64,000 bases of DNA, taken from the NCBI GenBank assembly GCA_964463175.1, contig CAYXBJ010000178.1, positions 52,431 through 116,430 on the forward strand, read 5' to 3'. Positions 454 through 33,191 of the stretch are shown here, in pieces; the first letter of the stretch is position 1, and each line of letters starts with the position of its first letter. The notes under the pieces are model-generated. The model was not told the DNA's origin. It saw only the letters and a program-made list of their open reading frames with translations, and searched no databases. The translations under genes were made by a program, and so were the position numbers. The DNA is from an uncultured bacterium (lineage in GTDB: Bacteria > Methylomirabilota > Methylomirabilia > Rokubacteriales > DASRDR01).

Positions 454-1362
454 TCAGCCGCTCCCCTTCCGGAAGTACTGGATCGTGCCGGCGAACCGAT
501 AGAACAGCGGGGCCACGAAGCTGCGCACCAACCCGCCAGGCCCCGTCGCGACGACCGGGAACATCGGCCGCATGACGGGCGACAGGCCCGCCTCACGCCC
601 GAGGCGCCGGAGCGCCCCGTGCGTGAAGCAGTTGATGTGCTCCAGCGGATGGAACGCGTCCTTCCTGGCGCGCCAGGCCGGCGAGCCGAGCCGCTTCACC
701 CCCCAGCCGGCGTCCGGCACGGCGACTCGCATCACGCCCCCCGCCTTCAGCGCCGCCGCGAGCTTCTTCATGCTCTGGCCCGGATTCGGGATGTGCTCGA
801 ACGATTGCTCGCTGTTCACAAAGTCGAAATGCGCGCCGGGGAGCGCGTCGATGCTAACGATCTCCGCGCCGAACGTGCGAGCGTACTCCTGACGCTCCTC
901 CGACAGCTCGGTACCGTAGGCGCGGAATCCGAAGGCGGTGGCCATCCGACACCAGTAGCCCCAGCCCATGCCGTGGTCCAGCACTGCAATCTCGCGTGGA
1001 CGCTTCCGCGCGAAGGCGGCGATGTGCCCCATCTCCCTGGCGTAGCCCGAGTACAGGCCGTGGTCGCTGCCGAGCCGCTTCTCCCGCGACTCGCCCGACA
1101 CGATCCATTCCGAATACAGCCGCCCCAGATCACGGTCCCTCAAGATCGCGGTTTGCCACATGAAACCGCAGCCGTTGCATCGCGCAATCTCGTAGTCCGC
1201 GCCGCTCAGCACCTCCGGATCGATCCGGCCCGCGTAGTATTCGGTTAGAAAGCCGTACACCACGGGATCGAGGAACGCCTTGGAAAGAAGAATGGTCTTC
1301 TCGGGCCGGCTGCACACTTCACACGCGAGGCGAAGGCGAAAGTGCGGATGATCATCCTGCAT
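454..1362 (-). CDS. Class I SAM-dependent methyltransferase with N-terminal zinc-ribbon (sugar C/O-methyltransferase-like)
   Basis: N-terminal CxxC...CxxC (CEVCSRP...CNGCGFMW), followed by a glycine-rich SAM-binding core (VLDHGMGWGYW) and acidic motif. Confidence 0.75.
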   Translation of the reverse strand: MQDDHPHFRLRLACEVCSRPEKTILLSKAFLDPVVYGFLTEYYAGRIDPEVLSGADYEIARCNGCGFMWQTAILRDRDLGRLYSEWIVSGESREKRLGSDHGLYSGYAREMGHIAAFARKRPREIAVLDHGMGWGYWCRMATAFGFRAYGTELSEERQEYARTFGAEIVSIDALPGAHFDFVNSEQSFEHIPNPGQSMKKLAAALKAGGVMRVAVPDAGWGVKRLGSPAWRARKDAFHPLEHINCFTHGALRRLGREAGLSPVMRPMFPVVATGPGGLVRSFVAPLFYRFAGTIQYFRKGSG

Positions 1363-2328: not shown

Positions 2329-3345
2329 TCAGCACGCCGGCACGCGGTAGTACGCGCGATACCACTCCACGAAGCGGGCGACACCGTCCTCGATCGTCGT
2401 CCGGGGACGATAGCCGAAGTCACGGACGAGGTCGTCGATGTCGGCCCGGGTGGCGGGCACGTCGCCGGGCTGGAGGGGCAGGAAGTTCTTCTTGGCGGTG
2501 CGACCCAGGCACTTCTCGAGCACCTCGATGTACCGGAGAAGCTCGACGGGTCGGTCGTTCCCGATGTTGTAGATGCGGTAGGGCCCTCGGCTGGTCCCCG
2601 GATCGGGCCGGTCGCCAGACCAGGCGGGATCCGCCGCCGGTGGCTCGGCAAGGACCCGCACGATCCCCTCGACGACATCGTCGACGTAGGTGAAGTCTCG
2701 TTGCATCCGGCCCTCGTTGAAGACATCGATCGGCCGGTCCTCGAGGATCGCTCGGGTAAACAGGAAGAGCGCCATGTCCGGTCGCCCCCACGGGCCGTAC
2801 ACCGTGAAGAACCGGAGACCCGTGCACGGTAAGCCGTACAGGTGCGCGTAGCTGTGCGCCATCAGCTCGTTGGCCTTCTTCGTCGCGGCGTAGAGGCTCA
2901 ACGGATGGTCGACGTTGTCGTGCACGGAAAAGGGCAGCCGCGTGTTGGCGCCGTAGACGGAGCTGGATGACGCGAACACGAGGTGCTCGACCCGCTGGTG
3001 CCGGGAACCCTCGAGCACGTTGAGGAATCCGACCAGGTTCGCGTCGACATAGGCGTGGGGGTGCGAGAGCGAGTGGCGCACCCCCGCCTGCGCGGCCAAG
3101 TGGACGATGCGGGCGGGCCGGAGACGCCCGAAGAGATCGGCCATCGCCTCGCGGTCGCTCACATCCGCCAGCTCGAAGCCGAACCCGGCCTGCGCCGCCA
3201 GCCGGTCGAGTCGCGCCTGCTTCAGAGCGGGGTCGTAGTAGTCGCTCAGGTTGTCGATGCCCACGACGCGGTGGCCGTCGGTGAGGAGACGCTGGGCGAC
3301 GTGATAGCCGATGAACCCAGCGGCGCCGGTGACGAGGACGGTCAC
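2329..3345 (-). CDS. NAD-dependent UDP-uronate 4-epimerase (CapI/WbnF/TviC family, extended SDR)
   Basis: MTVLVTGAAGFIGYHV Rossmann motif, YAATK catalytic YxxxK, length 338 aa. Stop overlaps the upstream dehydrogenase gene by 4 nt. Confidence 0.85.
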   Translation of the reverse strand: MTVLVTGAAGFIGYHVAQRLLTDGHRVVGIDNLSDYYDPALKQARLDRLAAQAGFGFELADVSDREAMADLFGRLRPARIVHLAAQAGVRHSLSHPHAYVDANLVGFLNVLEGSRHQRVEHLVFASSSSVYGANTRLPFSVHDNVDHPLSLYAATKKANELMAHSYAHLYGLPCTGLRFFTVYGPWGRPDMALFLFTRAILEDRPIDVFNEGRMQRDFTYVDDVVEGIVRVLAEPPAADPAWSGDRPDPGTSRGPYRIYNIGNDRPVELLRYIEVLEKCLGRTAKKNFLPLQPGDVPATRADIDDLVRDFGYRPRTTIEDGVARFVEWYRAYYRVPAC

Positions 3346-4667
3346 GCCTTGATGACCTTCTCGCGGCCCGCCCGGACGTCGCGGGTGGCGTTGCGCGTGT
3401 CCACCACCACCACCGCATGCCGCACGACTTCCTCGTAGTCGATCGCCGAGTGGTCCGTCACGATGAGCACCGCGTCGGCGGCGCCCAGGGACTCGGCAGT
3501 CAGCGGGGTAGACTCGAGGTCGAACTGGTAGTGGCGGCCCCGTCCGAGCCGCGGGACGTGCGGATCGTGGTAAGCGATCTGCGCGCCACGCCTGGCCAGG
3601 ATCGAGAGGATGCGCAACGCCGGCGACTCGCGGATATCACCGGTGTCCCGCTTGTATGCGACTCCCAGCACCAGGACCCGCGCGCCGCGCAAAGTGGTTC
3701 CCCGGAGGTCCAGCGCGTCTCGGAGTCGGCTCACGACGTACTCCGGCATGGCGCTGTTGACCTCGCCGGCCAGCTCAATGAACCGCGTGTGAAAGTCGTA
3801 GGCACGGGCCTTCCACGTCAGATAGAAGGGATCGATGGGGATACAGTGGCCGCCGAGGCCCGGCCCCGGGTAGAAGGGCGTGAACCCGAACGGTTTCGTC
3901 GCCGCGGCCCCGATGACCTCCCACACGTCGATCCCCATCCGGTCGAAGCACATCTTCAGCTCGTTGACGAGCGCGATGTTGACCGCCCGGTAGATGTTCT
4001 CGAGGAGCTTGGACGCCTCGGCGACTCGAGTGCTGGACACCGCCACGACCTTGGCCACGACCGGCTCGTACAGCAGGGCGGTCAGGTCGCGGCAGACCTC
4101 CGTGCATCCCGACACGAGCTTGGGCGTGTTCCCGAGGGCGTAACGCGAGTTCCCCGGGTCCTCGCGCTCGGGCGAGTAGCCCAGTGCGATGTCGCGGCCA
4201 ACGGCGAGACCGCGTGCCTCGAGGATCGGGCGGACGAGCTCCTCGGTGGTGCCCGGGTACGTCGTGCTCACGAGCACGACGAGCTGTCCCGGCCTGAGGT
4301 GGGGCGCGATGGTCGAAGCCGTTCCCGACACCGCCGAGAGGTCGGGCTCCCCGTGCTCGTCGAGCGGCGTCGGCACGCAGATGATCAGCACGTCGCACTC
4401 GCCCGCCCGGCCGAAGTCGTTGGTCGCGGCCAGGCGCCCCGACGACACGAGGGCGGCCACGCGGTTCGAGGGGATGTCCATGAGGTAGGAGCGCCCCGCG
4501 GCGAGCGCCTCCGGCTTCTTGGGGTCGATGTCGAAGCCGAGGACCCGGTAGCCAGCGTCGGCGAACGCCAGCGCCTGCGGCAGGCCCACGTAACCGAGGC
4601 CGACGACTCCGACGACGCCGGTGCGATCCCGGAGACGACCACGCAACCCTTCCAGCACGCTCCTCAC
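3342..4667 (-). CDS. Nucleotide-sugar 6-dehydrogenase (UDP-GlcNAc/UDP-ManNAc/UDP-glucose dehydrogenase family; TviB/WecC-like)
   Basis: GVVGLGYVGLP NAD-binding motif, catalytic-Cys region GGHCIPIDP, C-terminal UDP-binding domain. Paired with the downstream 4-epimerase as in TviB-TviC. Confidence 0.85.
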   Translation of the reverse strand: MRSVLEGLRGRLRDRTGVVGVVGLGYVGLPQALAFADAGYRVLGFDIDPKKPEALAAGRSYLMDIPSNRVAALVSSGRLAATNDFGRAGECDVLIICVPTPLDEHGEPDLSAVSGTASTIAPHLRPGQLVVLVSTTYPGTTEELVRPILEARGLAVGRDIALGYSPEREDPGNSRYALGNTPKLVSGCTEVCRDLTALLYEPVVAKVVAVSSTRVAEASKLLENIYRAVNIALVNELKMCFDRMGIDVWEVIGAAATKPFGFTPFYPGPGLGGHCIPIDPFYLTWKARAYDFHTRFIELAGEVNSAMPEYVVSRLRDALDLRGTTLRGARVLVLGVAYKRDTGDIRESPALRILSILARRGAQIAYHDPHVPRLGRGRHYQFDLESTPLTAESLGAADAVLIVTDHSAIDYEEVVRHAVVVVDTRNATRDVRAGREKVIKA

Positions 4668-4966
4668 CTCCGTTCTTCCTCACGGCCCCAATGCAGGGCT
4701 CCGGCGCGTCCAGAAAACCCGGGTGACGCTCCGAGCATCAAGGACCTTCGTCGGCCCTTCGAAAGGTACACCGATGTCATCGCGCGTGTCGCGCACGACG
4801 AACACCGCGTGTCGTCGATGCGGACAGGCTCACCGGCCACGACGAGCGGCGCATCTTGGGCACCGTGTTCATGCACCCTGGGGGGCCCGCTCATGCGCGC
4901 GCATGAACGTCAACGCTTCCGTCCCGTGGCGGCCGTCGGTTCGCATCGGATCTCGCCCACGTGTCC

Positions 4967-5764
4967 TCAGTGGCCCGCGGATCGACGCTTGAACAGGAGG
5001 ATGGCCATGTTGGCATATCCCTTCTGTTCGACAAGGTCGTGGTCGGGCAGAGCCTCCAGTAGGCTCCGGATGCGTCCTGCGTCTCCCCGCGTTTCGCCCA
5101 CGATCCACTCGATCTCTCGAACTCGCGCCGATCCCTTGAAGATCGTGGTTTCGGATCCCTCGATGTCGAACTTCAGCAACTGCGGCGGCGAGGGCATTCT
5201 GCCTATGGCCACATCGAGGGGAGTCCCCTGCACCTGAACCGCCACGAAGTCGGCGTGATGAGAACTCGGCAGCACGAGCGAGCCCCGGGTGCTACGCAGG
5301 CGGTGCTCGAAGAATGCGACCGGTTTCTCTTCAGTCGACACCGCTTCCCGAAAGCAGCGAACACCATCAAGAGTGCCTACGTTCTTTACGAGAAGGTCGA
5401 AGTTCCCCGATAGCGGCTCATATACATGAAGACAGCGCGGCCGGAAATGGCACCAGAGGGACAGCACCGAGAATCCGATGTGGCCTCCAAGATCCAGGAT
5501 GCTCGAGATGGAATCGATGGGTACACTGAACTGCACATAGGTCTGCTCCCACACGACCTCTTTGAGGATCATGACGTCGGCGGGTCGCATGGTCCACGGG
5601 AACTCGGATCCTCCGACCCTGAGAGACACGCTCATCGAGCGCTTCACGGCGCCCGACATCTTGGCAAACGGAAGGGCAAGAGCGAGCTTCAGCCCTCCGA
5701 ATCCAGGGCTGAGCTGCCGACCCATGCGCGCGCAGGTCGCAAGCGTCCGGAGATTCGACATCAC
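4967..5764 (-). CDS. FkbM-family methyltransferase
   Basis: LDLGGHIGFSVL SAM motif, LKFDIEGSE. GC ~55% against a ~70% flank. Confidence 0.7.
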   Translation of the reverse strand: MMSNLRTLATCARMGRQLSPGFGGLKLALALPFAKMSGAVKRSMSVSLRVGGSEFPWTMRPADVMILKEVVWEQTYVQFSVPIDSISSILDLGGHIGFSVLSLWCHFRPRCLHVYEPLSGNFDLLVKNVGTLDGVRCFREAVSTEEKPVAFFEHRLRSTRGSLVLPSSHHADFVAVQVQGTPLDVAIGRMPSPPQLLKFDIEGSETTIFKGSARVREIEWIVGETRGDAGRIRSLLEALPDHDLVEQKGYANMAILLFKRRSAGH

Positions 5765-6028
5765 GCCGTCATTTCACGAGGAAGACGTAGAAGCCGCTCA
5801 CCTGTTTCGTACTCGCCCTTCCGCCGATGCGGTCCATCCCACCGCGCGACGCTCAGCCCGAATGGACTGAGCTCAAACCACGTCTCGATCGCCCCGCGAA
5901 TGGCCACGCACTCCATTCGCCCGAAGGGCTTGAAGAGCATTGGCGATGCCGTCCCCCAGTGTATCGCCGGAAGTCTTGAGCGCCCACGGCGCGTCTAGGA
6001 CTGGGATCCGCTGGCGCTTCGTCACAGC

Positions 6029-7243
6029 TCATCCGTCCCGCGAGCCGGCTCGAGCGCGAATCGGCTTGGATTCCTGGGCGCGGCGGCGGCGCCACAGGTC
6101 CTCGTAGAGCGCGAGCACGGCATCCGAAGCCCGTCCGGCAGCGTATTCCGACACGGCGATGCGCCGGGATTCCTCACCGAACTGCCTCCGTCGCGGCTCG
6201 TCCGTCAGCAATTCGGTGATCGCCGAGGCGAGGCCGGTCGCGTCCCTCGGCCGGACCAGGAGCCCGTTGACGCCCGGCCGGACGATCTCGCGACAGCCGG
6301 CAATGTCGGTCGCGACCAGCGGCCGGCCCATCGCGGCAGCCTCCAGGAGCACCCGGGACATGCCCTCTCGATAGGAAGGCAGGGCGACGATCGCCGCCAG
6401 CGCGAGGAGGCGCTGAACGTCGTGACGCTCACCGAGATACGTCACGGCACCAGCCCGCTCCCACCTCTGGACCTCATCCAGCCGGATGGCCGTGGGATTG
6501 CCGGTATCGATCGGCCCGACGAGCAGGAATCGCGCCTCGCGGACCTGCGCGCACACGCGGGGCGCGGCCTGGGCGAACTCACGGACGCCCTTGTCCCCGA
6601 GGATCCGGCAGATCATGACCACCGGCAGAGTGTCGTCGCTCAGATTCAGAGCACGGCGGAGGGCGCCGACGTCGTCGGGGCTCACGGCTCCCGGTGAGAA
6701 CTCCTCGACGTCAACGCCCTCCCCAGCCTGGATGACGCGCACCTTGGGATGGCCCGAGACTCCCAGAGCGCGCGGATCCTCCGTGTTGAGGAAGAGCATC
6801 GCGTCGCTCAGCCGGAGCGCCGCTCGCTGCAGCGACAGCACGATCCGTCGCGTCACCGGTCGCTCGCCCGTGAACGCGTAGCCAAGGCCGGTCAGCTGTG
6901 ACACGACCACCGGACGCGGCCGCAGGCTCCGGGCCGCGATCGAGCCGTAGGCCGCCGGCTTGGCCGTGAACTGGTGGACGAGATCCGGTCGGATCTCACG
7001 GTACAGCCGGACGAGGCGCCAGAGAGCCGAGAGCTCCCTCACCGCGCTCGTCGAGCTCCGGCGAAGCCTCCAGTCCCGGACGCGGGCGCCGATCCGCTCG
7101 AAGGGATCGCCGTCCAGATCACGCGGGGCGATGATCCACACGTCCGTCCCGGCCGCCAGCAGCCGCTCCACGAGCGGCCGGCGGAAGCGCCAGGTATCCT
7201 TCAGCGAGTTGGCGACGAGAGCCACCCGCCGGAGGGCCGTCAC
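6029..7243 (-). CDS. Glycosyltransferase family 4 (GT-B)
   Basis: C-terminal EGMSRVLLEAAAMGRPLVATDIAG (E-x7-E GT4 signature). Start taken at GTG 7241-7243, overlapping the upstream TGA as GTGA. The track ORF's extra N-terminus overlaps the upstream gene. Confidence 0.8.
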   Translation of the reverse strand: MTALRRVALVANSLKDTWRFRRPLVERLLAAGTDVWIIAPRDLDGDPFERIGARVRDWRLRRSSTSAVRELSALWRLVRLYREIRPDLVHQFTAKPAAYGSIAARSLRPRPVVVSQLTGLGYAFTGERPVTRRIVLSLQRAALRLSDAMLFLNTEDPRALGVSGHPKVRVIQAGEGVDVEEFSPGAVSPDDVGALRRALNLSDDTLPVVMICRILGDKGVREFAQAAPRVCAQVREARFLLVGPIDTGNPTAIRLDEVQRWERAGAVTYLGERHDVQRLLALAAIVALPSYREGMSRVLLEAAAMGRPLVATDIAGCREIVRPGVNGLLVRPRDATGLASAITELLTDEPRRRQFGEESRRIAVSEYAAGRASDAVLALYEDLWRRRRAQESKPIRARAGSRDG

Positions 7244-8484: not shown

Positions 8485-9822
8485 TCAGATACGCAGCCAC
8501 ATCCACAGAGCGGTGAAGACGGCCACGCTCGTCCACCACAGCGCGAAGGCGAGCTTGTATCGCTGCCACCCGCCGGCCTCCATGCCCCACGCCGACAGAA
8601 GGAACATCAGGCCCAGCATCGCCGTACGCTGCCGGTAGGGATCGCTTCCGATGGCGACGCCCATGCTGGTCAGGGCAAAGACGGCAAACGCGATCACCGA
8701 GCAGATCAGCGCGACCCCGTTACGACGCGACAGCCAGCCACCGATCAGCGCGAACGGCATCAGCACGTACCAGACCGCGGCGTTCATGGCCTCGAGCAGC
8801 GTGTCGATCCCGGTGTCGAACAGGAACCTGAGCGGGGACGGCGACAAGAGGCCTCTGACGAAGAGCACTCCCAGGTTCGCCGGGGACAGCGCGTTACCGG
8901 GCGTTATGAAGCGCATCACGGTGGCGGTGGACTCGCCGAATCGCTGCATGAAGTACTGCTCTTGCGTCAGCCGGCTCATCACCATGTCCGCCACCGGACC
9001 CACGAACAGTGGCGAGACGACCGCGACCCCCAACGCCCCGGCCATGCCGAGGCGAACCCATGATCGGCCACGAATCATGTCGCGAAGGCTCGGCTGATCC
9101 CCGAACACGAGATAGAGGAGGAGGCCTAGCGCCCCGATGACTGCCCAGGTCGCACCCCGGAGCCAGTACAGAACGACGACAGGGACCGTCGCGCCGATGA
9201 TCCGGCGGGGAAGCGAACGGCCGGGTCTCGCCAGAAACCACGGAACGAGCGTCAGCAGAACGGCCGTCGGCACCTCCTTGAGCACGAGCGTCGAGAACAC
9301 GACGAGAGGAGGCAGATACGCCGTGAACCGGAATGCGCGCCGAGCCACAGCTTCATCGCGGAACAGCCACCGTCCCAAGTCCCACACGAGGAACGGCAAC
9401 AGCGCACCGAGCATGACGTTCAGCATCTTGGGGACGAGAATGTTCGGCGCGAGTCCGACGTACAGCAACGTCACGATCTGGTAGTAGCCGATCCCAGGTG
9501 CCAACGAGAAGAGTCCGTACGCCTGCGTCAGCCCGGCCGCGTGAAATCCCAGTTCATCGTCGTACAAGAACAATGATGTCAGGATCACGGCCACCACAAC
9601 TCGGAGTACGAACACACGCGTGAACAGGATGATCCGGTTGGGCATGGCGCTGCTCCGGACCACCAGCATGAGTCCCATCAGGTAGAAGATCACGGCGGCC
9701 GCGATCGCCGGAAGCACGGGAGCCTCGCCGAGTGCCACGACCCGCTCCGGCTGCATCATCCCGGCGACGCGGTACACGGCGAGACCCACGAGTGCGGCGA
9801 CCACGAGGAGGACGGCCAGCAT
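8485..9822 (-). CDS. Polytopic inner-membrane protein (>=10 TM), candidate Wzy-type polymerase / function unknown
   Basis: Hydrophobic throughout (MLAVLLVVAALVGLAVY..., many predicted helices), no soluble domain. Start taken at MLAVLL; the track ORF begins 37 codons earlier. GC slightly lower than flank. Confidence 0.5.
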   Translation of the reverse strand: MLAVLLVVAALVGLAVYRVAGMMQPERVVALGEAPVLPAIAAAVIFYLMGLMLVVRSSAMPNRIILFTRVFVLRVVVAVILTSLFLYDDELGFHAAGLTQAYGLFSLAPGIGYYQIVTLLYVGLAPNILVPKMLNVMLGALLPFLVWDLGRWLFRDEAVARRAFRFTAYLPPLVVFSTLVLKEVPTAVLLTLVPWFLARPGRSLPRRIIGATVPVVVLYWLRGATWAVIGALGLLLYLVFGDQPSLRDMIRGRSWVRLGMAGALGVAVVSPLFVGPVADMVMSRLTQEQYFMQRFGESTATVMRFITPGNALSPANLGVLFVRGLLSPSPLRFLFDTGIDTLLEAMNAAVWYVLMPFALIGGWLSRRNGVALICSVIAFAVFALTSMGVAIGSDPYRQRTAMLGLMFLLSAWGMEAGGWQRYKLAFALWWTSVAVFTALWMWLRI

Positions 9823-9954
9823 GGGCAACCCCACTCCCCGTCCTCCGCGCGATGCGCCGCCGGCCGGTCTCACGCGAGCGCGCACATCAGGCCTCATCGG
9901 CCCGTCGGGGCGTGCTGACGGCAGCAGTCCCATGCCCCCTCCACCACCATTCCG

Positions 9955-15096: not shown

Positions 15097-16512
15097 TCAG
15101 CTCGAGCTAGACGCGAGCCGTTCTCGCAGCATCGAGCCACCGAGTATCCGGCGAAGCATGAGACTGCAGTACACCGTGAGGCCCACGGTCTGGGCGAGCA
15201 ATGCGAGGGCGATCCCGATATTCCCAAGTCGTGGCACCACCAATACCCACGCAAGAATCAGACCAGCGCTGGTGATTCCGGTGGCGAGCACGTACGCGCC
15301 AATCCGGTCGACCGCCATGTAGGCCGGGCGAAGCCAGAAGAACACGACTTGCCAGCCGGCTGCGAGCAGGAGGATCCGGGTAACTGGAATCGCCGGAAGA
15401 TACGCCGCCCCCACCAGCAGGACGAGGAACTCGCCCACAAGCACGGCGGCGCCGGCGGTCAGGAGGGCCAGCGGCATGCCGACGAGGAGAACCAGGCGCC
15501 ACACGTGTCGCCGGAACGCTTGCACGTCGCCTAACGCCCAGATGCGAATAAGCGCGGGGTAGGTGACCGTTTGGAGTGGACCGACCAGCAGCGCCAGCAG
15601 CGCGGCCACGCTCTTCGCGATCTTGTAATAGCCGACGTCGGTGGCCCCTCGGAAGAATCCCAGAATGGCCACGTCGAGCTGCTTCGACACCATGCCCACG
15701 GTAGCGTAGGCGCTGTTGAAGGCGAGAAAGCCCAGGACCTCGCGACGACGTCCGGCCAGCGTGGCACCGGATCCGTCGCTCAGCACGCCACCCCATTGGC
15801 GACGGGAGACGAGCGCCGACGCCAGACCGTAGAGGAGGCCATTTATCACCATCGAGATCGCATTGCCCCACACCACCCCGGCGACCTGCCATCCCGCCAA
15901 TAGGAACCAGAGAACCAGGCCACACCGGACGACATTGGTTGCGGCTTCGATCACGGCGATCGTCCCGAACCGCTGGAACGTAACGAGCACAGCAGTCGAG
16001 GTTCCAGCGACGGATCTCGGCACAAGCGCCAGCGTGTACGCGAAAATCAGCCACGCTAGCTCCGGCTGGTGGACGATCCGCACCGCGGCCCAGCCCGCCG
16101 TGAACGCCACGAGCACGGACGCCCCCAGAGCCACGCACAGATCGACGAGATACCCGAGCCGGCACATGGCCAGGGCGCGCCCGCGGTCTCCCCGGGCCTG
16201 GAACTCGCCCAGGTACTTGACCGAGGCCTCGGAGGAGCGCGCGTCCAGGATGTTGTACAGCAAGCCCGGGTAGGTCATCACCAGCGCGCTGACCCCGAAC
16301 AGCGACGGTCCAAGCCACCGGGCGACCAGCACGCCCAGGAGGACGTTCAGCCCCGCCCCGGCGACGTTCGAGATGGTGAGGATCCCGACGTGTCGGACGA
16401 ACGGTCGGCGGAGCCAGGCGGTGCCGATCGCGCGCCGGGCCGCTCCCCATACCCCCGGCCGGAAGCTCTCCTCGGGGTCGAGGGGCTCCGTCGGCGACTC
16501 GAACGTCTTCAC
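15097..16512 (-). CDS. Wzx-type oligosaccharide flippase (MOP superfamily, polysaccharide biosynthesis protein)
   Basis: ~12 predicted TM helices, 471 aa, typical PST-family composition (...LAFNSAYATVGMVSKQLDVAILGFF...). Confidence 0.75.
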   Translation of the reverse strand: MKTFESPTEPLDPEESFRPGVWGAARRAIGTAWLRRPFVRHVGILTISNVAGAGLNVLLGVLVARWLGPSLFGVSALVMTYPGLLYNILDARSSEASVKYLGEFQARGDRGRALAMCRLGYLVDLCVALGASVLVAFTAGWAAVRIVHQPELAWLIFAYTLALVPRSVAGTSTAVLVTFQRFGTIAVIEAATNVVRCGLVLWFLLAGWQVAGVVWGNAISMVINGLLYGLASALVSRRQWGGVLSDGSGATLAGRRREVLGFLAFNSAYATVGMVSKQLDVAILGFFRGATDVGYYKIAKSVAALLALLVGPLQTVTYPALIRIWALGDVQAFRRHVWRLVLLVGMPLALLTAGAAVLVGEFLVLLVGAAYLPAIPVTRILLLAAGWQVVFFWLRPAYMAVDRIGAYVLATGITSAGLILAWVLVVPRLGNIGIALALLAQTVGLTVYCSLMLRRILGGSMLRERLASSSS

Positions 16513-17646: not shown

Positions 17647-18750
17647 CTATCGAGTTTGGCCCGCGCGCCGCTTCGCGTCGGCGATCACGGGCAGATAGGC
17701 CCTCATCGGCCCCGCCGGGGGGAACAGACCCACTCGCTGGCTGTAGAGCCACACGTATCCGTCGCTCAATTCTAGCGCGTACTCGAGGGATCGCTGAAGC
17801 TCCGCCGGCGTGAAGTAGTCAGGGCGGTCCTGGTAGTCGAGCATCAGGCCGAATCCCGTGCGAACGTGCTGCCGGTAGCGCTCGGGCACGGCACTCAGCG
17901 ACATCGCGTCCTGGAGGACGCGCTGGCGGCCGGCCACGAAGTGCCACCGCCGCTTGAAGCCGTACGAAAATTCGTAGCCGTCGTGGAGCACCGCGCCGGG
18001 CGGAAGCACGTCGAGCAGACCATCGAGAAAAGCGGGCAGCAGCGCATATTCCGTCAGCTCGAGACGGCGCCCGTCCCGAATCAGGGACAGCGGCAGCGTG
18101 TACGCGAGCAGCGAGAGGATCACGGGGTCCCGGAGCCAGCTGGCCACCGCCGACATGACCTGGCGCCCCCGTCGACGCGCCGCCTCCGCCATCTCCGGAA
18201 AGGGCACGTCGGCGCTCTTCCGCTGGTCCTGGTAGCTGAAGAGCCGGTAGCCGTAGTGCTCGGGGTCCAGGAGGATGCCGCGCGTGCCGGTCACGGCAGC
18301 GATTCGCGCCAGCACGGACGCATTCCCGGCGATCACCTGCCATCGCGCGTCGTCCATCCAGCTCAGGCCTTCGGCGGAGAGACCCGGCGACAGGATCCAC
18401 GGCAGGAAGTTGTGCTGGAACCGCCGCCAGGACGGCGCCCGCAGGTCGTCCACCGCGGCGTCGAATTCCTCGAAACGGAACGCGCGGCGGCCCATCACCT
18501 GCCAGCCGAGCTGGTTCTCCGTGCTCCTCGCGCCCTGCGTCCACGCATCGCGCTGGATGGCGATCAAGATGCCGATCCCGTCCAGGGGCAGGTCTTCCAT
18601 CTCAGCCCAGCCGTTCCGCACCTGCTGGGTGTCCGGGCTGCTCCAGCCGTAGTACAGGACCTTGGCGGCCGAGCTCGCCGGGGCCGGCCGCCCGCCAAGC
18701 AGGAGGCACGCGGCGGCTCCGGTCAAAATGGTGCGCCTATCGAGCTTCAT
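17647..18750 (-). CDS. Predicted Tat/Sec-exported protein of unknown function
   Basis: MKLDRRTILTGAAACLLLGG twin-arginine-like signal. 367 aa soluble domain with no recognisable motif. Embedded between a GT and the priming transferase. Confidence 0.6.
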   Translation of the reverse strand: MKLDRRTILTGAAACLLLGGRPAPASSAAKVLYYGWSSPDTQQVRNGWAEMEDLPLDGIGILIAIQRDAWTQGARSTENQLGWQVMGRRAFRFEEFDAAVDDLRAPSWRRFQHNFLPWILSPGLSAEGLSWMDDARWQVIAGNASVLARIAAVTGTRGILLDPEHYGYRLFSYQDQRKSADVPFPEMAEAARRRGRQVMSAVASWLRDPVILSLLAYTLPLSLIRDGRRLELTEYALLPAFLDGLLDVLPPGAVLHDGYEFSYGFKRRWHFVAGRQRVLQDAMSLSAVPERYRQHVRTGFGLMLDYQDRPDYFTPAELQRSLEYALELSDGYVWLYSQRVGLFPPAGPMRAYLPVIADAKRRAGQTR

Positions 18751-18801: not shown

Positions 18802-20268
18802 CTAACGCCCTGACGGCATCCCTGCCACGAAGGCGGTTCGCAGAAGGATGGCCAGGTCGAGAAGGAAGCCCTGGTTCTTGATGTAGTAGAGGTCGTACTC
18901 GAACTTCTCTCGGGAGTCCTCGAGAGACGCCGCGTAGCGGAAGTTCACCTGCGCCCACCCGGTGACACCGGGCTTCACGAGGAGCCGCGTGGAGTAGAGA
19001 CTGATCGTCTCCCGGAAGCCGTCGACGAAGTACGTGCCATCAGGGTCCGTCTTTCGCTTGCCCGACCGCATGATCGGAATGCGCTGGAGGAATCCCGCCA
19101 CGAAGACTTCCCGCTCCGGCCGCGGACCGACGAGGCTCATCTCGCCCTGCAGCACATTGATCAGCTGGGGCAACTCGTCCAGGCGCCACTTGCGCAGGAA
19201 GCGCCCGATGGAGGTGGTGCGCGGATCGTCCTCGGAGGCCCAGACCGGGCCGGTTCCGGCCTCGGCGTCCGGCACCATCGTGCGGAACTTCACGACCTTG
19301 AACACCCGGCCGTGCTGACCCAGCCGCTCCTGACGGTAGAACACCGGACCCTTTGATCCCATCTTCACGAGAGCCGCGACGCACAGCATGAGAGGTGCGG
19401 TCAGGACGAACAGCAGGGACCCCAGCGTCAGGTCCACCAGGCGCTTCACGCGCGGATTCATGAGCCGGATCTGGTTGAGGCTCAGGAAGAGTCCCCAGTG
19501 GTCCTGGTTGAAGGCGAGCGGCACCCGGCCGGTGAGCGTCTCGTACACGTGCAGGCCGTCGAGGATCTCGACCCCGCGCACGCGACAGCGAATCAGCTCC
19601 ATGACGAGATCCTCGTCACGGCGGTAGGGGGGAGCCAGGACGATGCACGTGGCATTCGCTTCCGCGGCCACCTGGCTCAGCGTTGCCGCCCCGACATATA
19701 CCGGAAGGTCGACCCGGCCGCCCTCGTTCTTCCCGTCGGAGCCCAGCACGAACCCGACCGGCTGGATCGAGCCGGCCGACGAGTTGAGCAAGAGCTCCGC
19801 GATGGCTTGACCCGCGTCGCCCGTCCCCAGGATCAGGGCGCGCCGCGGCGCCACGAAGTGCGCGGCGAACTGGTGCCCCACGAGACGCCAGACCCCGGAC
19901 ACCACCAGATTGATGAGCCCGAAGAGAATGAGAATGCCTCGACCGATCCGGTCGAGGCCCTGGAAGTAGACCAGCGACAGCGCGACCAGCCACGCGATCG
20001 CGTTGGCCGACACGTGGGTGACCAGCACCAGCGCGACGTCCCGGCGAATCCGCGAGATCTGGCTGCCGACCGCGTACAGGACCACGCCGTACACCAGCGA
20101 GACCACGGCAATCTGGGGCGCCTGCCTGAAGAGGTAGACAGGCGCTCCCGCGACGCCCAGCCGGAGGACGACCGCCAGCGCCAGGGACAGAAGCGCCCAC
20201 AGCCCCTCGATCAGGAGCAGGCGGACGTCGGTTGTCCGGACGCCCTCGAATCGCCGCCAGCGGCCCAC
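18802..20268 (-). CDS. Polyprenyl-phosphate hexose-1-phosphate transferase (WbaP/CpsE/EpsB-type bacterial sugar transferase), priming enzyme
   Basis: N-terminal TM helices and a central domain. C-terminal catalytic domain reads VFYRQERLG...FKVVKFRTM...MSLVGPRPE...KPGVTGWAQV. A ~25-aa insertion precedes KPGVTGWAQV. Confidence 0.85.
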   Translation of the reverse strand: MGRWRRFEGVRTTDVRLLLIEGLWALLSLALAVVLRLGVAGAPVYLFRQAPQIAVVSLVYGVVLYAVGSQISRIRRDVALVLVTHVSANAIAWLVALSLVYFQGLDRIGRGILILFGLINLVVSGVWRLVGHQFAAHFVAPRRALILGTGDAGQAIAELLLNSSAGSIQPVGFVLGSDGKNEGGRVDLPVYVGAATLSQVAAEANATCIVLAPPYRRDEDLVMELIRCRVRGVEILDGLHVYETLTGRVPLAFNQDHWGLFLSLNQIRLMNPRVKRLVDLTLGSLLFVLTAPLMLCVAALVKMGSKGPVFYRQERLGQHGRVFKVVKFRTMVPDAEAGTGPVWASEDDPRTTSIGRFLRKWRLDELPQLINVLQGEMSLVGPRPEREVFVAGFLQRIPIMRSGKRKTDPDGTYFVDGFRETISLYSTRLLVKPGVTGWAQVNFRYAASLEDSREKFEYDLYYIKNQGFLLDLAILLRTAFVAGMPSGR

Positions 20269-23204: not shown

Positions 23205-26123
23205 TCACGATCCCGTGCCGGCCCCGACGGTGGCCAGGCCACGCAGGGCCGCAGCGTTGTCGGGCTGGCGCCGGAGCACGGTGCGATACTGCTGGATCGC
23301 CCGGTCGGCAAGTCCCGCCCGCGCGTACAGGTCGCCGAGCTCCGCGCCAAGGTCGCCGTCCGCCGGGCGGAGCCGCTGCGCCACTTCGTAGCTCGCGATC
23401 GCTTCCCGCAGGTAGCCGGCGCCCCGAAGGGCCTGCGCCGCCGCCCGGTGGAGGCGCCAATCGTCGCCGCCGACCGCGGCCGCCGTCCGGTACTCCTGGA
23501 ACGCCTCGGCGGCCTGCCCCCGCTGCTCGAGCAGCCGGCCGAGCTCGAGATGGACCCAGCCATCGTTCGGCTTGTCGCGAAGGATCTGGCGCCACAGCGT
23601 CACCGCCCGCTCCCACTGGCCGCGCTGGACAAACAGGGCGGCGAGCTCTCCCTGGACACGGTGGCGCCGGCTGGCCGGGCCAGGACCGGACTCGGCCAGA
23701 GTCGCAGCGGTGGCGAGCGCGATGTCCGCCTCCATCCCCTGGTTCGTCTGGGCGTAAACCATGGCGAGGACGGCGAAGACCTCCGCCTCTCCCGGCGCCA
23801 GCACCAGAGTGCGGCGGGCCTGTTCGAGCGCGGCCAGCGGGTCTTTCCGATTGATCAGCACCCGCGCGTACGCGAGTCGCGCCTCCACCTCGGTGGCGGG
23901 CTCCTGCGCGAGCGCGATCGCCTGCTCGAACGCGGCGGTGGCGCCCTGCGTTCGCCCGCGGCGCTCCAGATACGATCCGAGCCCGAGGAGCAGGTCGAAC
24001 TTCTGCGGCACGGTCGCCAGGATGAGCTGGTCGTCCACCTGCCGGGCCAGCAAGTCCTCGACAACGCCGTCGAGGAAGCCGGGGTTCAAGGCCACGGCCC
24101 GGCCGAACGCCGCGCTCGCCACCTCGTAGCGGTCCGGTTGACCGACGGCATTCAGCGCGAACGACCCCATGCGCCGGTGTCGATTCGCGTTCTGGGGGTC
24201 CCAGCGGACGGCGTCCTGGAAGTGCGCCAGGGCTTCGGGGAACACGCTCCGCTCCGACCCGACGGTCCCCGCGAGCCGCGGGTCAATCGGGGTCTGGATC
24301 GGGCTCTTCTGGACGACCTGGCGAACATTCTCCAGGGTTCCGAGGAACCAGCCGAACCGCTCGTGCGTGTCGGCCGCCCGCGGCCGGAGCTGGAGGCTCG
24401 TCCGATACGCCTCGTACGCGTCCGCGAGCAGGGGCTGCGCCGCCTCGAACTTCGCTGCGACGGACAGGTCGGACAGGCGCGCGCCGCTCGCGGTGATCCC
24501 GAGCGTCCAGGCGCGGCGCCCGAGCTCGGCGGAGACGTCGGCGAAGTCCGACCAGGCGGCCGGGTTCGAGCGATCCCAGGCAACGGCCGTCCGGAGGCCG
24601 GCGCGCGCCCGGATCAGATCCCCCTGCGGCGTCCCATCCCTTCGCCAGACACTGGTCACCGTGGAGGCGGCACTCGCTCGTTGCCATCCGGCGACGCTCG
24701 GGGGCGCCAGCAGCACCGTGGCGGCGACCACCGCCACCAGGGCGACGAAGACACTCACCGTGCTCCATCCCGGATTCAGGCGCCAGCCCCACCGCTCCAG
24801 GCCAACACGCTCCCCTTCACCATCCCGGTGGAGGGTCGCCGCCAGCGGCAGCAGCCCGGCAATCAGCGCCAGCATCACCGCATTGCCTGGCATGTGGAGC
24901 CCGAAGTCCACGACACTGTGAACCGTGACCGCGACGATCGCGCCAGTGCCTCCCAGCAGGAGCCCGCGGACGAACGGATCGCGGCGACCGCGCCACGCCT
25001 GCACCAGGGATGTCAGCAGCGCCACCAGTGCCCATCCGGCGATCAGCAGGCCCACCACTCCCGTCTCGGCCAGCAGCTGCAGGAAGTCGTTGTGCGCGTA
25101 GTCCACGAACTTGTCGGCCGGAACCTCGACTGGTTGATAGGGCGCGAAGCCATCCCGGAACGCGCCGAGCCCGATCCCGGCGACCGGCGCATCACCGACG
25201 ACTCGCAGCGTCGTCGCCCAGATTCTCGAGCGCAGATCCGACGCGGGCTCCCGCAGCACCTCGGAGAATCGGTCGGTCACCGCCCCGAGTCCGACCCAGC
25301 CGGCGTAGGTGACAACGCCGAGCGCGAGCGCCAGGATGGCCAGCGTGACGTGGTTCCCGGATCGAGCCGTGCGCGCCATGGCGAGCATGGCCAGCACGCC
25401 GACCACGGTACTCACCACACCGCCGCGGGAGAGCGTGAGGGCGAGCGCGAGCGCCAGGACAAGCACGCCACCGACCAGGAACACTCGCACCGTCAGACCC
25501 TCGAGGGCCCCCGCGGGAGGCGCCGACTCGGACCGCCCCGCGTGTCCGCGGCGCGAATGGGCGGAGGGACGCAAGAGCAGTCCCAGGGCCATGAACAGGG
25601 CGATGGAGAAGTAGAGGGCCTGGTGGTTCGGGTTGACGAAGGTGCTCGTCAGGCGGCCCGACGGGCTGGCCGCGAGCCCGCTCCAACCGATCTTGAGCTG
25701 TCCAGCAAACCCCACCCCGGCCAGGACGACCGCCCAGCCAACCAGCGCGAGCGTCAGCCGGGTGAGGCGCGCGCGGGTCATCGGGAGGCCGGTGACCACG
25801 AGGAACAGACCGAAGTAGGCGAAGTAAAGCCGCGCGCTCTCCCAGGTTGCGTACCGGTTGATCGAGCCGCCGGGCGAGAAGACCTGCCAGCCGACGAGGA
25901 CGGCCATCGCCACCGCCGGTCCCAGCAGTGGAGTCCGGCGAATCTCGAGCTCTCCGGACACCGCCATCCGAACGATCCACAGGGCGAGCAGCAGCGCCAC
26001 GCCGCCCTCGATGCCCGCCTGGGCCCAGGGCACGACGGCACCGAGGGGCAGCGGCGCGAACATCAGGAGCGCCACCACTCCGACCTCGATGACGGCGTCG
26101 ATAACCCGGGCGAGTCCAGTCAC
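23205..26123 (-). CDS. O-antigen ligase/polymerase-family (Wzy_C domain) membrane protein fused to a long C-terminal TPR-repeat domain
   Basis: N-terminal ~430 aa polytopic with Wzy_C hallmarks (LALTLSRGG, YAHNDFLQLLAETGVVGL). C-terminal ~450 aa of TPR-like repeats (...AYARVLINRKDPLAALEQARRTLVLAPGEAE..., ...LGDLYARAGLADRAIQQYRTVLRRQPDNAAALRGLA). Confidence 0.75.
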   Translation of the reverse strand: MTGLARVIDAVIEVGVVALLMFAPLPLGAVVPWAQAGIEGGVALLLALWIVRMAVSGELEIRRTPLLGPAVAMAVLVGWQVFSPGGSINRYATWESARLYFAYFGLFLVVTGLPMTRARLTRLTLALVGWAVVLAGVGFAGQLKIGWSGLAASPSGRLTSTFVNPNHQALYFSIALFMALGLLLRPSAHSRRGHAGRSESAPPAGALEGLTVRVFLVGGVLVLALALALTLSRGGVVSTVVGVLAMLAMARTARSGNHVTLAILALALGVVTYAGWVGLGAVTDRFSEVLREPASDLRSRIWATTLRVVGDAPVAGIGLGAFRDGFAPYQPVEVPADKFVDYAHNDFLQLLAETGVVGLLIAGWALVALLTSLVQAWRGRRDPFVRGLLLGGTGAIVAVTVHSVVDFGLHMPGNAVMLALIAGLLPLAATLHRDGEGERVGLERWGWRLNPGWSTVSVFVALVAVVAATVLLAPPSVAGWQRASAASTVTSVWRRDGTPQGDLIRARAGLRTAVAWDRSNPAAWSDFADVSAELGRRAWTLGITASGARLSDLSVAAKFEAAQPLLADAYEAYRTSLQLRPRAADTHERFGWFLGTLENVRQVVQKSPIQTPIDPRLAGTVGSERSVFPEALAHFQDAVRWDPQNANRHRRMGSFALNAVGQPDRYEVASAAFGRAVALNPGFLDGVVEDLLARQVDDQLILATVPQKFDLLLGLGSYLERRGRTQGATAAFEQAIALAQEPATEVEARLAYARVLINRKDPLAALEQARRTLVLAPGEAEVFAVLAMVYAQTNQGMEADIALATAATLAESGPGPASRRHRVQGELAALFVQRGQWERAVTLWRQILRDKPNDGWVHLELGRLLEQRGQAAEAFQEYRTAAAVGGDDWRLHRAAAQALRGAGYLREAIASYEVAQRLRPADGDLGAELGDLYARAGLADRAIQQYRTVLRRQPDNAAALRGLATVGAGTGS

Positions 26124-26881
26124 TTGGAGCGTGCCTCTCCCGACGAGCGGCCCTTGACCGGGTCATAAGCGCTTCGCGTGTAATACCCGTCGTACGTGTC
26201 GTAGTACCGCTTGGAGTAGCCGTGCGCCGCGGCATCGAACCGGTTGAGCACGGCGCCGATGATCCGTCCCCTCACCGCCTCGATGCGCTCCTTTGCGCGC
26301 CGCAGCGCCACCTCTGGTGTCTGCCCGCTGTCCACGACCAGCAGCACGCCGTCGACGTGCGGCGCGAGCGCGCACGCATCGCTCGTTGCGAGCGCCGGCG
26401 GGGAATCGAGGATCACGACGTCGAAGCGCTCCGCCACCGTGTTCAGGAACTCGTGCATCCGTCGGGAGCCCAGGAGCTCGGCGGGGTTCGGAGGCGTCGG
26501 ACCACTCACCACCAGGGAGAGATTCGGGACGGCGCTCTTGAGGAGCACCGCGGCCAGGAGCGAGTCGCCGACGAGGTACGACGACAGCCCCGGCGTGGTG
26601 GGCTGCCGGAACAGACTGTGGACGCTGGGGCGCCGGAGGTCCGCCTCGACCAGGAGGACCGAGCGTTCCCCCTGCGCCATGCTGATCGCCAGATTGGCCG
26701 CGGTCGTCGACTTGCCCTCACCGGGGCCGGCGCTCGTCACCAGGATGCGCCGGAGCGGGACGTCGGGATTCGCGTAATGGAGGTTGTTCCGGAGCACCCG
26801 GAATGCCTCGGCGGCGAACGACTGAGGGTCATTCAGCGTCACGAGGCTCGAGGGCGAGGACGAGCTCTTCAACGGGGTCAT
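26120..26881 (-). CDS. Bacterial tyrosine autokinase, cytoplasmic subunit (CpsD/CapB-like BY-kinase)
   Basis: Walker A SAGPGEGKSTTAANLA, Walker A' VLLVEADLRRP, Walker B DVVILDSPP, C-terminal Tyr cluster YSKRYYDTYDGYYTRSAY. Confidence 0.85.
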   Translation of the reverse strand: MTPLKSSSSPSSLVTLNDPQSFAAEAFRVLRNNLHYANPDVPLRRILVTSAGPGEGKSTTAANLAISMAQGERSVLLVEADLRRPSVHSLFRQPTTPGLSSYLVGDSLLAAVLLKSAVPNLSLVVSGPTPPNPAELLGSRRMHEFLNTVAERFDVVILDSPPALATSDACALAPHVDGVLLVVDSGQTPEVALRRAKERIEAVRGRIIGAVLNRFDAAAHGYSKRYYDTYDGYYTRSAYDPVKGRSSGEARSK

Positions 26882-26895
26882 CTCCTCTCTCCGAC

Positions 26896-28254
26896 CTAGC
26901 TACGCGCTCGGGGGAGCATGGGAATCAGGGAGAACACGGGTACACCGAGCGCATGCTCCACCTGCTCGGGCGTGCGAACGCTGTCGTCCATGTATTCGAG
27001 GAAGAAGGCAGCGCCGAGGCCCACGATCAGCCCCATGAGCGCGCCGAGCGCCAGGTTCAGCGTCTTTCGCGGCTTGATGGGGGACGTGGGGACGATGGCC
27101 GCCTCCACGATCCGGATGTTGTTCGAGTCCAGACCCTGGCTGAGGCTCGTCTCCTTGAGGCGCTTCAGCAGCACGTCATACAGCTGCTGGTTCGAATCCG
27201 CCTCTCGCTTCAGGATCCCGTACTGGATCTCCTTCTTCCCGAGAGCCTGGGCCTCGTCGCGGTACTGGTTCACGGCCTGGAGCATCGCGTTCTCGCGCGC
27301 CTTGAGCGCGTTGTACTCGCTCTCCATGCTGAGCGAGAGCCGGCCCACCTCTTCGCGGATCTTCAGCTGGATCTCGTCGATCTGGGACTGGATCTTGACG
27401 ACCTCGGGGTGCTTCTCGCGGTATGTCTTGAGGAGCTTGGAGCGCTGAACCTCGAGCTCGACGAGCTGGCCCTTCAGCTTCTGGATCAACGGATTGTTGA
27501 TCACCATCGGCGAGGACTCCAGCAGCTCGGGCTGCGTCGAGGCGCGCTTGAGCTCGCCCAGGCGCGTCTCCATCTCGAGCCGCTTGGCCTTCGCCTCGAT
27601 GTACCCGCTGTTGAATTCGGCGAGCTTACGGACCCCCAGGCTTTGCTTCTCCTCGACCTGGACCAGCCCCGCCTGCTCGCGGTAACGCTGAAGCGCCAGC
27701 TCCGACTCGTTCACCTTGTTCTTGAGGTCGGAGACCTGCGCGGTGAGCCAGCTGAGGGCATCGCGCGCGGACGACAGCTTCAGCTCGAGATTCTGATGGA
27801 CGTACGTGGTCGCCAGGGTATTGGCGATCTCCGCCGCGAGCTTGGGGTCCTCGTCCTCGACACGGATCTCGATCAGGCGCGTGTTCCGGATCGGCTCGAC
27901 CGAGATCGCGCCGAGGAACGACGACGCCGGATCGGCCGCCAGGGCCAGCCCCGGCTTCTTCGTCTTGAGCTCGAGGGTATCGATCACCCGCTCGGCCACG
28001 GGCCGGCTCTTGACGATCTGGACCTGCGTCTCGAAGAACTCCGTGGATTCGGGCGCGATGCCCGCGGCGTCCTGGAAGTTCACCACCCGCGGCCCCTCAC
28101 GCTCGAGGAGCGCCTTGGTCGCCGCCCGGTAGACCGGACGCTGGAGATAGGTGCCGAGAGCCACCGTCGCGACGATCACGACGAAGCACGCGACGACCAG
28201 CCAGGCGTGCTTCCGCAGCACACGGATGTACTCACGCAGATGGACCTGTTCCAT
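26896..28254 (-). CDS. Polysaccharide co-polymerase (Wzz/GumC/CpsC-like PCP-2b, transmembrane subunit without kinase domain)
   Basis: N-terminal TM (LVVACFVVIVATVALGTYL), long coiled-coil periplasmic domain, C-terminal TM (LNLALGALMGLIVGLGAAFFL). Start may be the upstream M (28290). Confidence 0.8.
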   Translation of the reverse strand: MEQVHLREYIRVLRKHAWLVVACFVVIVATVALGTYLQRPVYRAATKALLEREGPRVVNFQDAAGIAPESTEFFETQVQIVKSRPVAERVIDTLELKTKKPGLALAADPASSFLGAISVEPIRNTRLIEIRVEDEDPKLAAEIANTLATTYVHQNLELKLSSARDALSWLTAQVSDLKNKVNESELALQRYREQAGLVQVEEKQSLGVRKLAEFNSGYIEAKAKRLEMETRLGELKRASTQPELLESSPMVINNPLIQKLKGQLVELEVQRSKLLKTYREKHPEVVKIQSQIDEIQLKIREEVGRLSLSMESEYNALKARENAMLQAVNQYRDEAQALGKKEIQYGILKREADSNQQLYDVLLKRLKETSLSQGLDSNNIRIVEAAIVPTSPIKPRKTLNLALGALMGLIVGLGAAFFLEYMDDSVRTPEQVEHALGVPVFSLIPMLPRARS

Positions 28255-28304
28255 GAAACCCTCACTCGACACGGTGTGTCCCGGCGGCATTGCGGCCCCC
28301 TAGC

Positions 28305-29450: not shown

Positions 29451-29590
29451 CTGGAGTTGTTCCTATGCTTTCAGACGCCGGCAGGAGCAGCCGTCCGAGG
29501 TCGCGATAAGGCAGAAGTCCCTGTTGGGCACGATTTAGGTACTACGAGCAACTCTCGTGCCTAGAGTCAGGGAGGAGCAGGCGGGCTAGG

Positions 29591-33132: not shown

Positions 33133-33191
33133 GGGCCCATCAGGCCCGGCAGGTACAAGAACTCTATTCAAGGAAACGCGGCAACGATACA

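Follow-up and report, generated by a model that had tools for sequence, protein, structure and literature searches.

A compositionally atypical FkbM-family methyltransferase gene at the conserved/hypervariable junction of an exopolysaccharide locus in an uncultured Rokubacteriales bacterium

A 64-kb stretch of DNA from an uncultured bacterium of the order Rokubacteriales (contig CAYXBJ010000178.1, positions 52,431 to 116,430; the whole stretch of 64,000 nucleotides is called the window here) carries a Wzx/Wzy-type exopolysaccharide (EPS) locus in which one gene stands out by its codon usage. The gene (4967..5761, minus strand) encodes a protein of 264 amino acids (aa) assigned to the FkbM family of S-adenosylmethionine (SAM)-dependent methyltransferases by the PF05050 and TIGR01444 models, its motifs and a structural model. 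It is probably a single functional accessory gene located at the junction between the conserved and the hypervariable part of the locus, foreign in origin, old and maintained by selection, and flanked by spacers that are ordinary. According to this explanation FkbM would belong to a serotype-like variable block which differs wholesale between relatives and ends in a sharp breakpoint at the start codon of the adjacent nucleotide-sugar dehydrogenase gene; it probably entered an ancestor common to the lineage of the closest relative (contig L093) and would since have been kept by purifying selection. An original prediction made from the letters of the sequence had proposed a laterally acquired decoration module formed by the gene and two hairpin-bearing spacers. 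The lateral component of that proposal finds support in the atypical codon usage and in the lack of the gene in four related contigs, whereas the acquisition does not appear to be recent and no hairpin-bounded island was recognized.

The open reading frame (ORF) originally delimited at 4967-5764 on the minus strand exists and its product is an FkbM methyltransferase, since it passes the curated cut-offs of both Pfam PF05050 (Methyltransf_21; 26.3 bits, cut-off 22.7) and NCBIfam TIGR01444 (48.1 bits, cut-off 37.7). Three start codons are candidates, GTG at 5764, ATG at 5761 (264 aa, the Logan call) and ATG at 5725 (252 aa, the JGI/NCBI call), of which ATG 5761 is favoured by the N-terminal alignment with homologs. 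The residues D90-x-G92-x-x-x-G96, E115-P116, N127, K197-F-D199-x-E201-G202-x-E204 and G222-E223 (264-aa numbering) are kept, and these positions are invariant or nearly so in an alignment of 56 sequences. DxGxxxG is the glycine-rich motif I, which binds SAM in class I methyltransferases; the residues kept also include the acidic position that follows strand 2 (E115) and the K-x-D-x-E-G-x-E motif typical of the family. The AlphaFold2 model of the protein (pLDDT 92.7, pTM 0.91) shows an N-terminal extension of about 70 residues made of two helices and a hairpin, and the top 50 Foldseek matches in the PDB are all class I SAM methyltransferases, with E values down to 3e-9. These fold matches are modest and none is close (TM 0.4-0.5), and a sequence search of the PDB with the same protein returned nothing at E <= 1. 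Judging from the motifs, the confident model, the selection acting on the gene (see below) and its presence in the whole population, FkbM seems intact and its product looks functional. The family and the genomic context suggest that the enzyme would most likely methylate a sugar of the polymer repeat unit or cap the chain end.

Composition was evaluated against the 47 other frame-checked genes of the window (48 with FkbM), not against the whole genome. The window has 69.2% GC. FkbM shows the lowest GC content of the 48 genes (60.4% vs 69.1% for the window genes, z -2.85), the lowest GC at third codon positions (GC3 0.73 vs 0.888 +/- 0.039, z -4.1; the minimum among the others is 0.81) and the highest Karlin codon bias B (0.375 vs 0.209 +/- 0.037, z +4.5; the maximum among the others is 0.292). 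First and second codon positions are within the normal range (z -1.4 for GC1 and -0.7 for GC2), thus the anomaly sits at synonymous positions. The 800-bp interval with the lowest GC of the 64 kb starts at 5001, within the gene (0.600; mean 0.691, standard deviation 0.032). The low-GC island announced in the original prediction is therefore sustained for the gene and not for its surroundings: the left spacer, toward the dehydrogenase, has 66.9% GC and the right spacer, toward the glycosyltransferase (GT) gene GT_a, 63.6%, and both fall among the other intergenic stretches of the window (0.59-0.89, pooled 0.72), so that the anomaly is one gene and not an island of 1.36 kb. The hand counts of about 53-58% for gene and spacers were some 5-10 points too low, and the 73% given for the GT gene compares with a measured 70.7% (69.2% in the dehydrogenase gene). 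The sliding-GC and codon-usage check suggested at the time hence singles out FkbM as the extreme of 48 genes and leaves the spacers as ordinary DNA. The remainder of the variable block is mostly host-like (GC 65-71%), FkbM alone being deviant.

The position of the gene was correctly anticipated: it occupies the exact junction of the nucleotide-sugar genes (dehydrogenase, epimerase and HAD phosphatase) and the GT array. Syntenic contigs from other organisms were reached through the dehydrogenase cluster at a minimum of 90% identity, and in L091, L092, L093 and L122 the dehydrogenase is 90-92% identical to that of the window at the amino acid level. The synonymous divergence (dS) of this gene from the window copy is 0.40 in L093, 0.54 in L091/L122 and 0.84 in L092; with values of 0.4-0.8 the organisms compared are species or genera, not strains. 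At the DNA level L091 and L092 resemble the window up to positions 4681 and 4670, respectively, at the ribosome-binding site and start of the dehydrogenase gene, and the similarity of L122 likewise ends within 4670-4681. In comparisons of the window with its relatives protein identity is 80-96% in the conserved flank, formed by the sugar-nucleotide and ABC-transporter genes, and 24-56% in the variable block. FkbM is missing in L091, L122, L092 and L131, four contigs that represent three locus types. In the first type (L091 and L122) the sequence upstream of the dehydrogenase contains other small ORFs or a gene in divergent orientation. L092 presents a collinear GT block, 24-55% identical, followed by a 460-aa protein that adjoins the dehydrogenase. 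L131, reached through a 52% identical GT_a homolog, has the epimerase/HAD/ABC-transporter flank in common with the window (67-88% aa identity) and contains GT_b-like and GT_a-like genes followed by a GT, a Methyltransf_11 and another GT gene in place of FkbM. In L129, derived from an organism with 55% GC, nothing of the cluster follows the GT_a homolog, and the pair GT_b-GT_a recurs in both L129 and L131 with no FkbM gene after it. What is exchanged between relatives is the GT block upstream of the dehydrogenase in its entirety and not only FkbM. The comparison of syntenic loci gave a divided answer: the gene is missing in four contigs but kept in L093, and the GT block differs as well.

Some features of these loci were recorded in addition. 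The 460-aa protein of L092 (L092:8622-10004), at the position taken by FkbM in the window, has no Pfam match, and its gene has 4 bp in common with the start of the dehydrogenase gene. In L131 (L131:9219-13508) tblastn detected no dehydrogenase ahead of the epimerase; many genes of this contig are fragmented, and assembly errors are possible. L129 contains a toxin-antitoxin run (PemK, VapB, RHH) and a GH123 hydrolase gene between the GT block and an opposite-strand dehydrogenase gene (L129:11572-15510).

The age of the gene can be approached through L093 (JGI 3300037153), a 1.4-kb contig of the closest relative by dehydrogenase dS, which contains an FkbM ortholog (71% aa identity) followed by the dehydrogenase (92% aa identity). 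Between the window and L093 FkbM shows a dS of 1.10 and a nonsynonymous divergence (dN) of 0.17; the resulting dN/dS of 0.16 indicates that the gene is under purifying selection. The FkbM dS exceeds the value for the adjacent dehydrogenase gene by a factor of 2.8, an excess that may reflect older alleles of the variable block or a dS inflated by weak codon bias. The L093 copy of FkbM has 64% GC and a GC3 of 0.82, and its neighbour dehydrogenase 70% and 0.93. Read from these sequences, the acquisition of FkbM would predate the split from the L093 lineage (dS of at least 0.4) and is not expected to be recent. The two genes are separated by 110 bp in L093 and by 308 bp in the window, where the segment 4766-4966, directly 3' of the FkbM stop codon on the minus strand, corresponds to a single alignment gap of 201 bp. 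This 201-bp stretch has no copy in the window or the fetched loci and no coding signal, and it is either an insertion in the window or a deletion in L093. The remaining, dehydrogenase-proximal part of the spacer, about 100 bp (4668..4765, minus strand), aligns with L093 and not with L091, L092 or L122.

The gene was also traced in its own population and among distant homologs. The exact FkbM protein is present on 16 contigs of one metagenome series (L001-L010 and L123-L128), 99.7-99.96% identical to the window; these contigs are one population, all of them carry the gene and they provide no structural contrast. In two samples (L120 and L121; JGI 3300036870 and 3300036992) the assembly is interrupted inside the 5' end of the dehydrogenase gene, and separate contigs (L008 and L010) carry FkbM up to that break. 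Such a break can stem from co-occurring divergent strains and would fit a cassette boundary. An exhaustive HMMER search of 1.84 billion representative proteins recovered 1,660 members of the family, among which the sole close homolog is P0004, a 140-aa fragment with 71% identity that corresponds to the L093 ortholog; the approximately 20 next-best homologs have 35% identity or less. The 10 homologs that were looked up are all metagenomic singletons, and two homologs at 29% identity (L132 and L133) are also located among GT4, Wzx and Wzy genes. The search for the nearest taxonomic hits that had been recommended therefore led to one 71% fragment and no nameable donor. For the neighbouring genes, the nearest non-self homologs of GT_a are 51-55% identical, its best match in metagenome contigs is 43% over a short fragment and at most 40% over near-full-length alignments, and the dehydrogenase is 52-62% identical to the best genome-contig homologs among the matches listed, which are spread over many phyla and include neither the host nor a close relative. 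The metagenome collection used for GT_a does not contain the source population either.

The deviant third-position composition together with the lack of a close homolog suggests a foreign origin, which from sequence data appears to explain FkbM better than native descent does; the gene is probably an old lateral add-on. Vertical inheritance would require that the low GC3 derives from weak expression, relaxed codon selection or less GC-biased gene conversion, and that the gene was lost in relatives along with block replacement, and it is considered rather unlikely, though it has several observations on its side. The deviation is restricted to GC3, with GC1 and GC2 normal; the 17 neighbouring EPS genes are also lower in GC3 (mean 0.86 vs 0.89 for the 48 genes); the GC3 of the L093 ortholog is below that of its neighbour too; and the FkbM-dehydrogenase junction is common to organisms separated by a dS of at least 0.4. 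On the other hand, FkbM lies outside the range of all 47 other genes in both GC3 and B, similarly short accessory genes included, no homolog above 35% identity was found outside the small lineage, the gene is missing in three other locus types, and the FkbM dS, 2.8 times the dehydrogenase value, is consistent with an allele that is older or foreign, although dS is also inflated by weaker codon bias.

Several points weigh against an old foreign gene fixed at the block boundary. With normal GC1 and GC2, the compositional anomaly could reflect weak codon selection instead of foreign origin, and the reference for codon usage was limited to the 64-kb window. No mobility gene (integrase, transposase), tRNA/att site or significant flanking repeat was found beside FkbM, and none of the 10 homologs looked up allows a donor to be named. 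An empty site, with GT_a directly beside the dehydrogenase and no FkbM, was not encountered among the loci compared, thus insertion of FkbM as a single-gene event is not demonstrable. Finally, L093 is limited to 1.4 kb and covers FkbM and the dehydrogenase, not the context upstream.

The spacers were at the centre of the original prediction. The left spacer extends from the FkbM stop codon to the dehydrogenase start (4659..4966, minus strand, 308 bp) and the right one from the GT_a stop codon to the FkbM start (5762..6028, minus strand, 267 bp to ATG 5761); the lengths proposed earlier agree with these, being 299 or 308 bp and 264 or 267 bp depending on the start codon used. The spacers are the sole intergenic gaps above 100 bp between 454 and 29450, all others being overlaps or at most 76 bp; an apparent gap at 29.4-31.3 kb corresponds to the second Poly_export gene. 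Both spacers lack a phase-specific GC signal and are non-coding, and tblastx against all fetched loci detected no similarity to them; on the same grounds hidden genes or pseudogenes within them were rejected. ORFs of up to 190 aa that overlap FkbM and the spacers in other frames or on the opposite strand were dismissed as frame noise of GC-rich DNA. The left spacer has five population-variable sites, four of them (4785, 4801, 4851 and 4856) inside 4766-4966 and one (4764) just outside.

Two inverted repeats had been described as strong hairpins. Hairpin 2, GCGAATGG-N9-CCATTCGC, is located at 5896..5920 (arms at 5896 and 5913) as predicted, whereas hairpin 1, GTTCATGC-N26-GCATGAAC, is at 4867..4908 (arms at 4867 and 4901), 10 positions to the left of the 4877-4918 first given, and encloses the palindrome ATGCGCGCGCAT (4893..4904). 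Hairpin 1 lies in the 201 bp that are missing in L093, lacks a T-tract and has no population single-nucleotide polymorphisms (SNPs) in its arms, and the minimum-energy fold of its region pairs the inner palindrome only. The adjective "strong" is not borne out: the window contains 80 perfect inverted repeats of 8 bp with loops of 3-30 (1.25 per kb), vs 65 +/- 6.5 in Markov simulations, at least two of them fall in 15% of 563-bp windows, and the folding energies of the left and right spacers relative to dinucleotide shuffles give z -0.93 and +0.20. The 8-bp hairpins of both spacers are at chance level and carry no detectable signal; in DNA of 65-70% GC such hairpins are background.

These data bear on the idea of a recent discrete cassette, composed of FkbM and both spacers, with the hairpins or palindromes at its ends as recombination or terminator sites. 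In its favour, the two unusually long spacers flank this gene alone, 201 bp of the left one are an indel relative to L093, and a clean single-gene insertion is found nearby (Methyltransf_23, about 280-1421). Moreover, the exact 12-mer CATGCGCGCGCA is present only twice in the 64 kb, at 4892 and 5723, with most of the ORF enclosed between its copies, and it is part of a 26-nt direct repeat, D1, with 77% identity. However, when one mismatch is allowed 4 occurrences are found vs 1.7 expected, a number equalled in 9 of 100 shuffles, and the best local alignment of the left spacer with the rest of the island scores 24, with shuffles at 22.3 +/- 2.5; D1/CATGCGCGCGCA was rejected as a flanking direct repeat in view of these shuffle-level scores and because its downstream copy is missing in L093. 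Hairpin frequency and folding are at background, as described, and the only other locus with an FkbM gene, that of L093, lacks hairpin 1. Neither transposase nor integrase nor element copies were detected: no further copy of the spacers exists elsewhere in the window or among about 130 loci, and a repeated element or miniature inverted-repeat transposable element (MITE) was discarded for that reason. The ortholog is 29% diverged in protein, which indicates an old acquisition, and the neighbouring GT genes are equally lineage-specific. A recent cassette is thus regarded as highly improbable.

A regulatory function of the spacers, as structured leaders or terminators that uncouple or switch the expression of the methyltransferase and so generate variable polymer methylation, appears just as doubtful. 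It is true that they are the sole large intergenic gaps in an operon-like run of 29 kb and that the right spacer is invariant, with zero SNPs, in 12-16 population contigs. Nevertheless, no credible Rfam match was obtained for the spacers (a known RNA family was rejected, the sole match being a 15.9-bit snoRNA false positive), consensus scans revealed no sigma-70, terminator-like or sigma-54 site, there is no excess folding energy, and simple-sequence repeats of the phase-variation type are absent from the spacers. In addition, L093 conserves only the smaller part of the left spacer, the one spacer that this comparison covers. Under the preferred explanation, an old accessory gene with ordinary flanks, the spacers would be ordinary non-coding DNA: the left one presumably holds the promoter and 5' untranslated region of the dehydrogenase gene, the right one is the presumed site of an FkbM promoter, and together they would probably place FkbM and the downstream sugar-nucleotide genes in transcription units of their own.

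FkbM is part of a single-strand run of about 32 kb, from about 32.4 kb down to 0.45 kb, in which the hallmark set of a Wzx/Wzy locus is complete: flippase (Polysacc_synt, Wzx; 15097-16512), polymerase (Wzy_C-TPR; 23205-26123), priming phosphoglycosyl transferase (Bac_transf; 18802-20268), chain-length/co-polymerase protein (Wzz/GNVR, 26896-28290, next to a ParA-like ATPase at 26120-26881) and outer-membrane export (two tandem Poly_export/SLBB paralogs, 28305-29450 and 29591-31150, minus strand). The run begins with a BBP2 porin, the two Poly_export proteins, Wzz/GNVR, the ParA-like ATPase, Wzy_C-TPR, a GAF histidine kinase and a DegT aminotransferase; continues with the Bac_transf priming enzyme, seven GT4 genes plus Wzx, a Methyltransf_11 gene, a polysaccharide deacetylase and a 482-aa protein with no Pfam match; and ends with GT_b, GT_a, FkbM, the nucleotide-sugar dehydrogenase, an epimerase, a Cof-type HAD phosphatase and a Methyltransf_23 gene. 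GT_a (6029..7225, minus strand; Pfam Glycos_transf_1 and Glyco_trans_4) is a GT4 glycosyltransferase and the last gene of the GT array. The dehydrogenase (3342..4658, minus strand) is a nucleotide-sugar 6-dehydrogenase, annotated by JGI as UDP-N-acetyl-D-glucosamine dehydrogenase, with the N, central and C domains of Pfam UDPG_MGDP_dh and a TIGR03026 score of 419.8 bits. A sigma-54 activator and a response regulator are encoded just beyond the run.

Other features of the run deserve mention. Two minus-strand genes of the cluster, 8485-9933 (482 aa) and 17647-18750 (367 aa), match neither Pfam nor NCBIfam models. The first of them has a weak similarity of 24% to the L092 gene at the same position, where L129 has an unassigned 523-aa protein, and might encode a second polymerase or some other membrane protein. 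Sites resembling the sigma-54 consensus (TGGCAC-N5-TTGCW) were observed on the minus strand at 29547-29562, with one mismatch, between the Poly_export genes and about 100 bp upstream of the second, and at 33191-33206, where the match is perfect and lies inside the opposite-strand sigma-54 activator ORF, some 730 bp upstream of the BBP2 porin gene; over the whole window such sites are no more numerous than expected by chance. The upstream Poly_export paralog has the lower GC3 of the pair and coincides with low-GC windows near 29.1 kb, and the low-GC windows near 31.2-31.6 kb overlie the BBP2 porin gene and not Poly_export. The Methyltransf_23 gene (454-1362, minus strand, 66% GC) is a clean single-gene insertion of 1.1 kb at 280-1421 relative to L091, L092 and L122, where the site comprises only 30-123 bp. 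At one breakpoint approximately 11 codons at the end of the HAD phosphatase gene are replaced; on the other side the insertion stops just short of a shared GC-rich hairpin located behind the convergent gene for an ABC-transporter substrate-binding protein (SBP). This gene is a better example of the insertion idea put forward for FkbM than FkbM itself.

It was further considered that FkbM and its spacers constitute an independently transcribed decoration module shuffled by recombination between EPS loci at the sugar-nucleotide boundary, FkbM representing a deep, uncharacterised clade of its family with a new sugar or position specificity, as the next-best homologs at 35% identity or less, the lack of a solved relative and the N-terminal extension might suggest. 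This is quite improbable; if it were true, then together with the Methyltransf_23 insertion it would make the methylation pattern the fastest-evolving trait of the polymer. In the preferred reading, that of an old accessory gene, FkbM is a divergent representative of a family already described, in a locus of a familiar type, and the pattern observed is ordinary for such clusters. The significance of the case beyond annotation is therefore small: a familiar surface-polysaccharide architecture is found in an uncultured 69%-GC bacterium, with a conserved sugar-nucleotide flank, a replaceable GT block and lineage-specific methyltransferases, the last being the parts shuffled most recently. In a study of the polymer, the genes to consider first for strain-specific O-methyl decorations would be FkbM and Methyltransf_23.

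Compared with known systems, the window gene resembles the FkbM-family enzymes (PF05050/TIGR01444) of O-antigen, lipopolysaccharide (LPS), EPS and flagellin-glycosylation loci in the cut-offs passed, the motifs and the class I fold, and it shares with its distant homologs and with published cases a position between GT4 genes in a Wzx/Wzy cluster. Unlike known members, its product is a very divergent branch, with about 20 next-best homologs at 35% identity or less and no PDB sequence match, and the gene is about 300 bp away from both neighbours, whereas the inspected homologs (L132 and L133) abut or overlap theirs. Genomic islands and mobile cassettes, such as integron cassettes and inserts bounded by MITEs or insertion sequences (IS), share with it the atypical composition and the presence or absence among relatives, but FkbM has no integrase or transposase, tRNA target, significant terminal repeats or second copy. 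Enterobacterial O-antigen clusters are hypervariable cassettes between conserved flanks. The window locus differs from such cassettes in its mostly host-like GC, in having no IS elements and in the distance of the organisms compared, which are species or genera (dS 0.4-0.8); the boundary located here is the one on the dehydrogenase side. It is similar to them in the drop of protein identity from 80-96% to 24-56% at a gene boundary, in the several cassette types found at one locus among relatives and in its low-GC cassette-specific gene. FkbM-family genes have been described as cassette-specific markers and components in O-antigen and LPS loci (bioRxiv 10.1101/2022.03.02.482478; PMC10888714). 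In Xanthomonas, LPS cassettes are located between etfA and metB, and an FkbM gene is reported to set the BXO1 type apart (bioRxiv 10.1101/2022.03.02.482478), just as an FkbM gene distinguishes the cassette type of the window.

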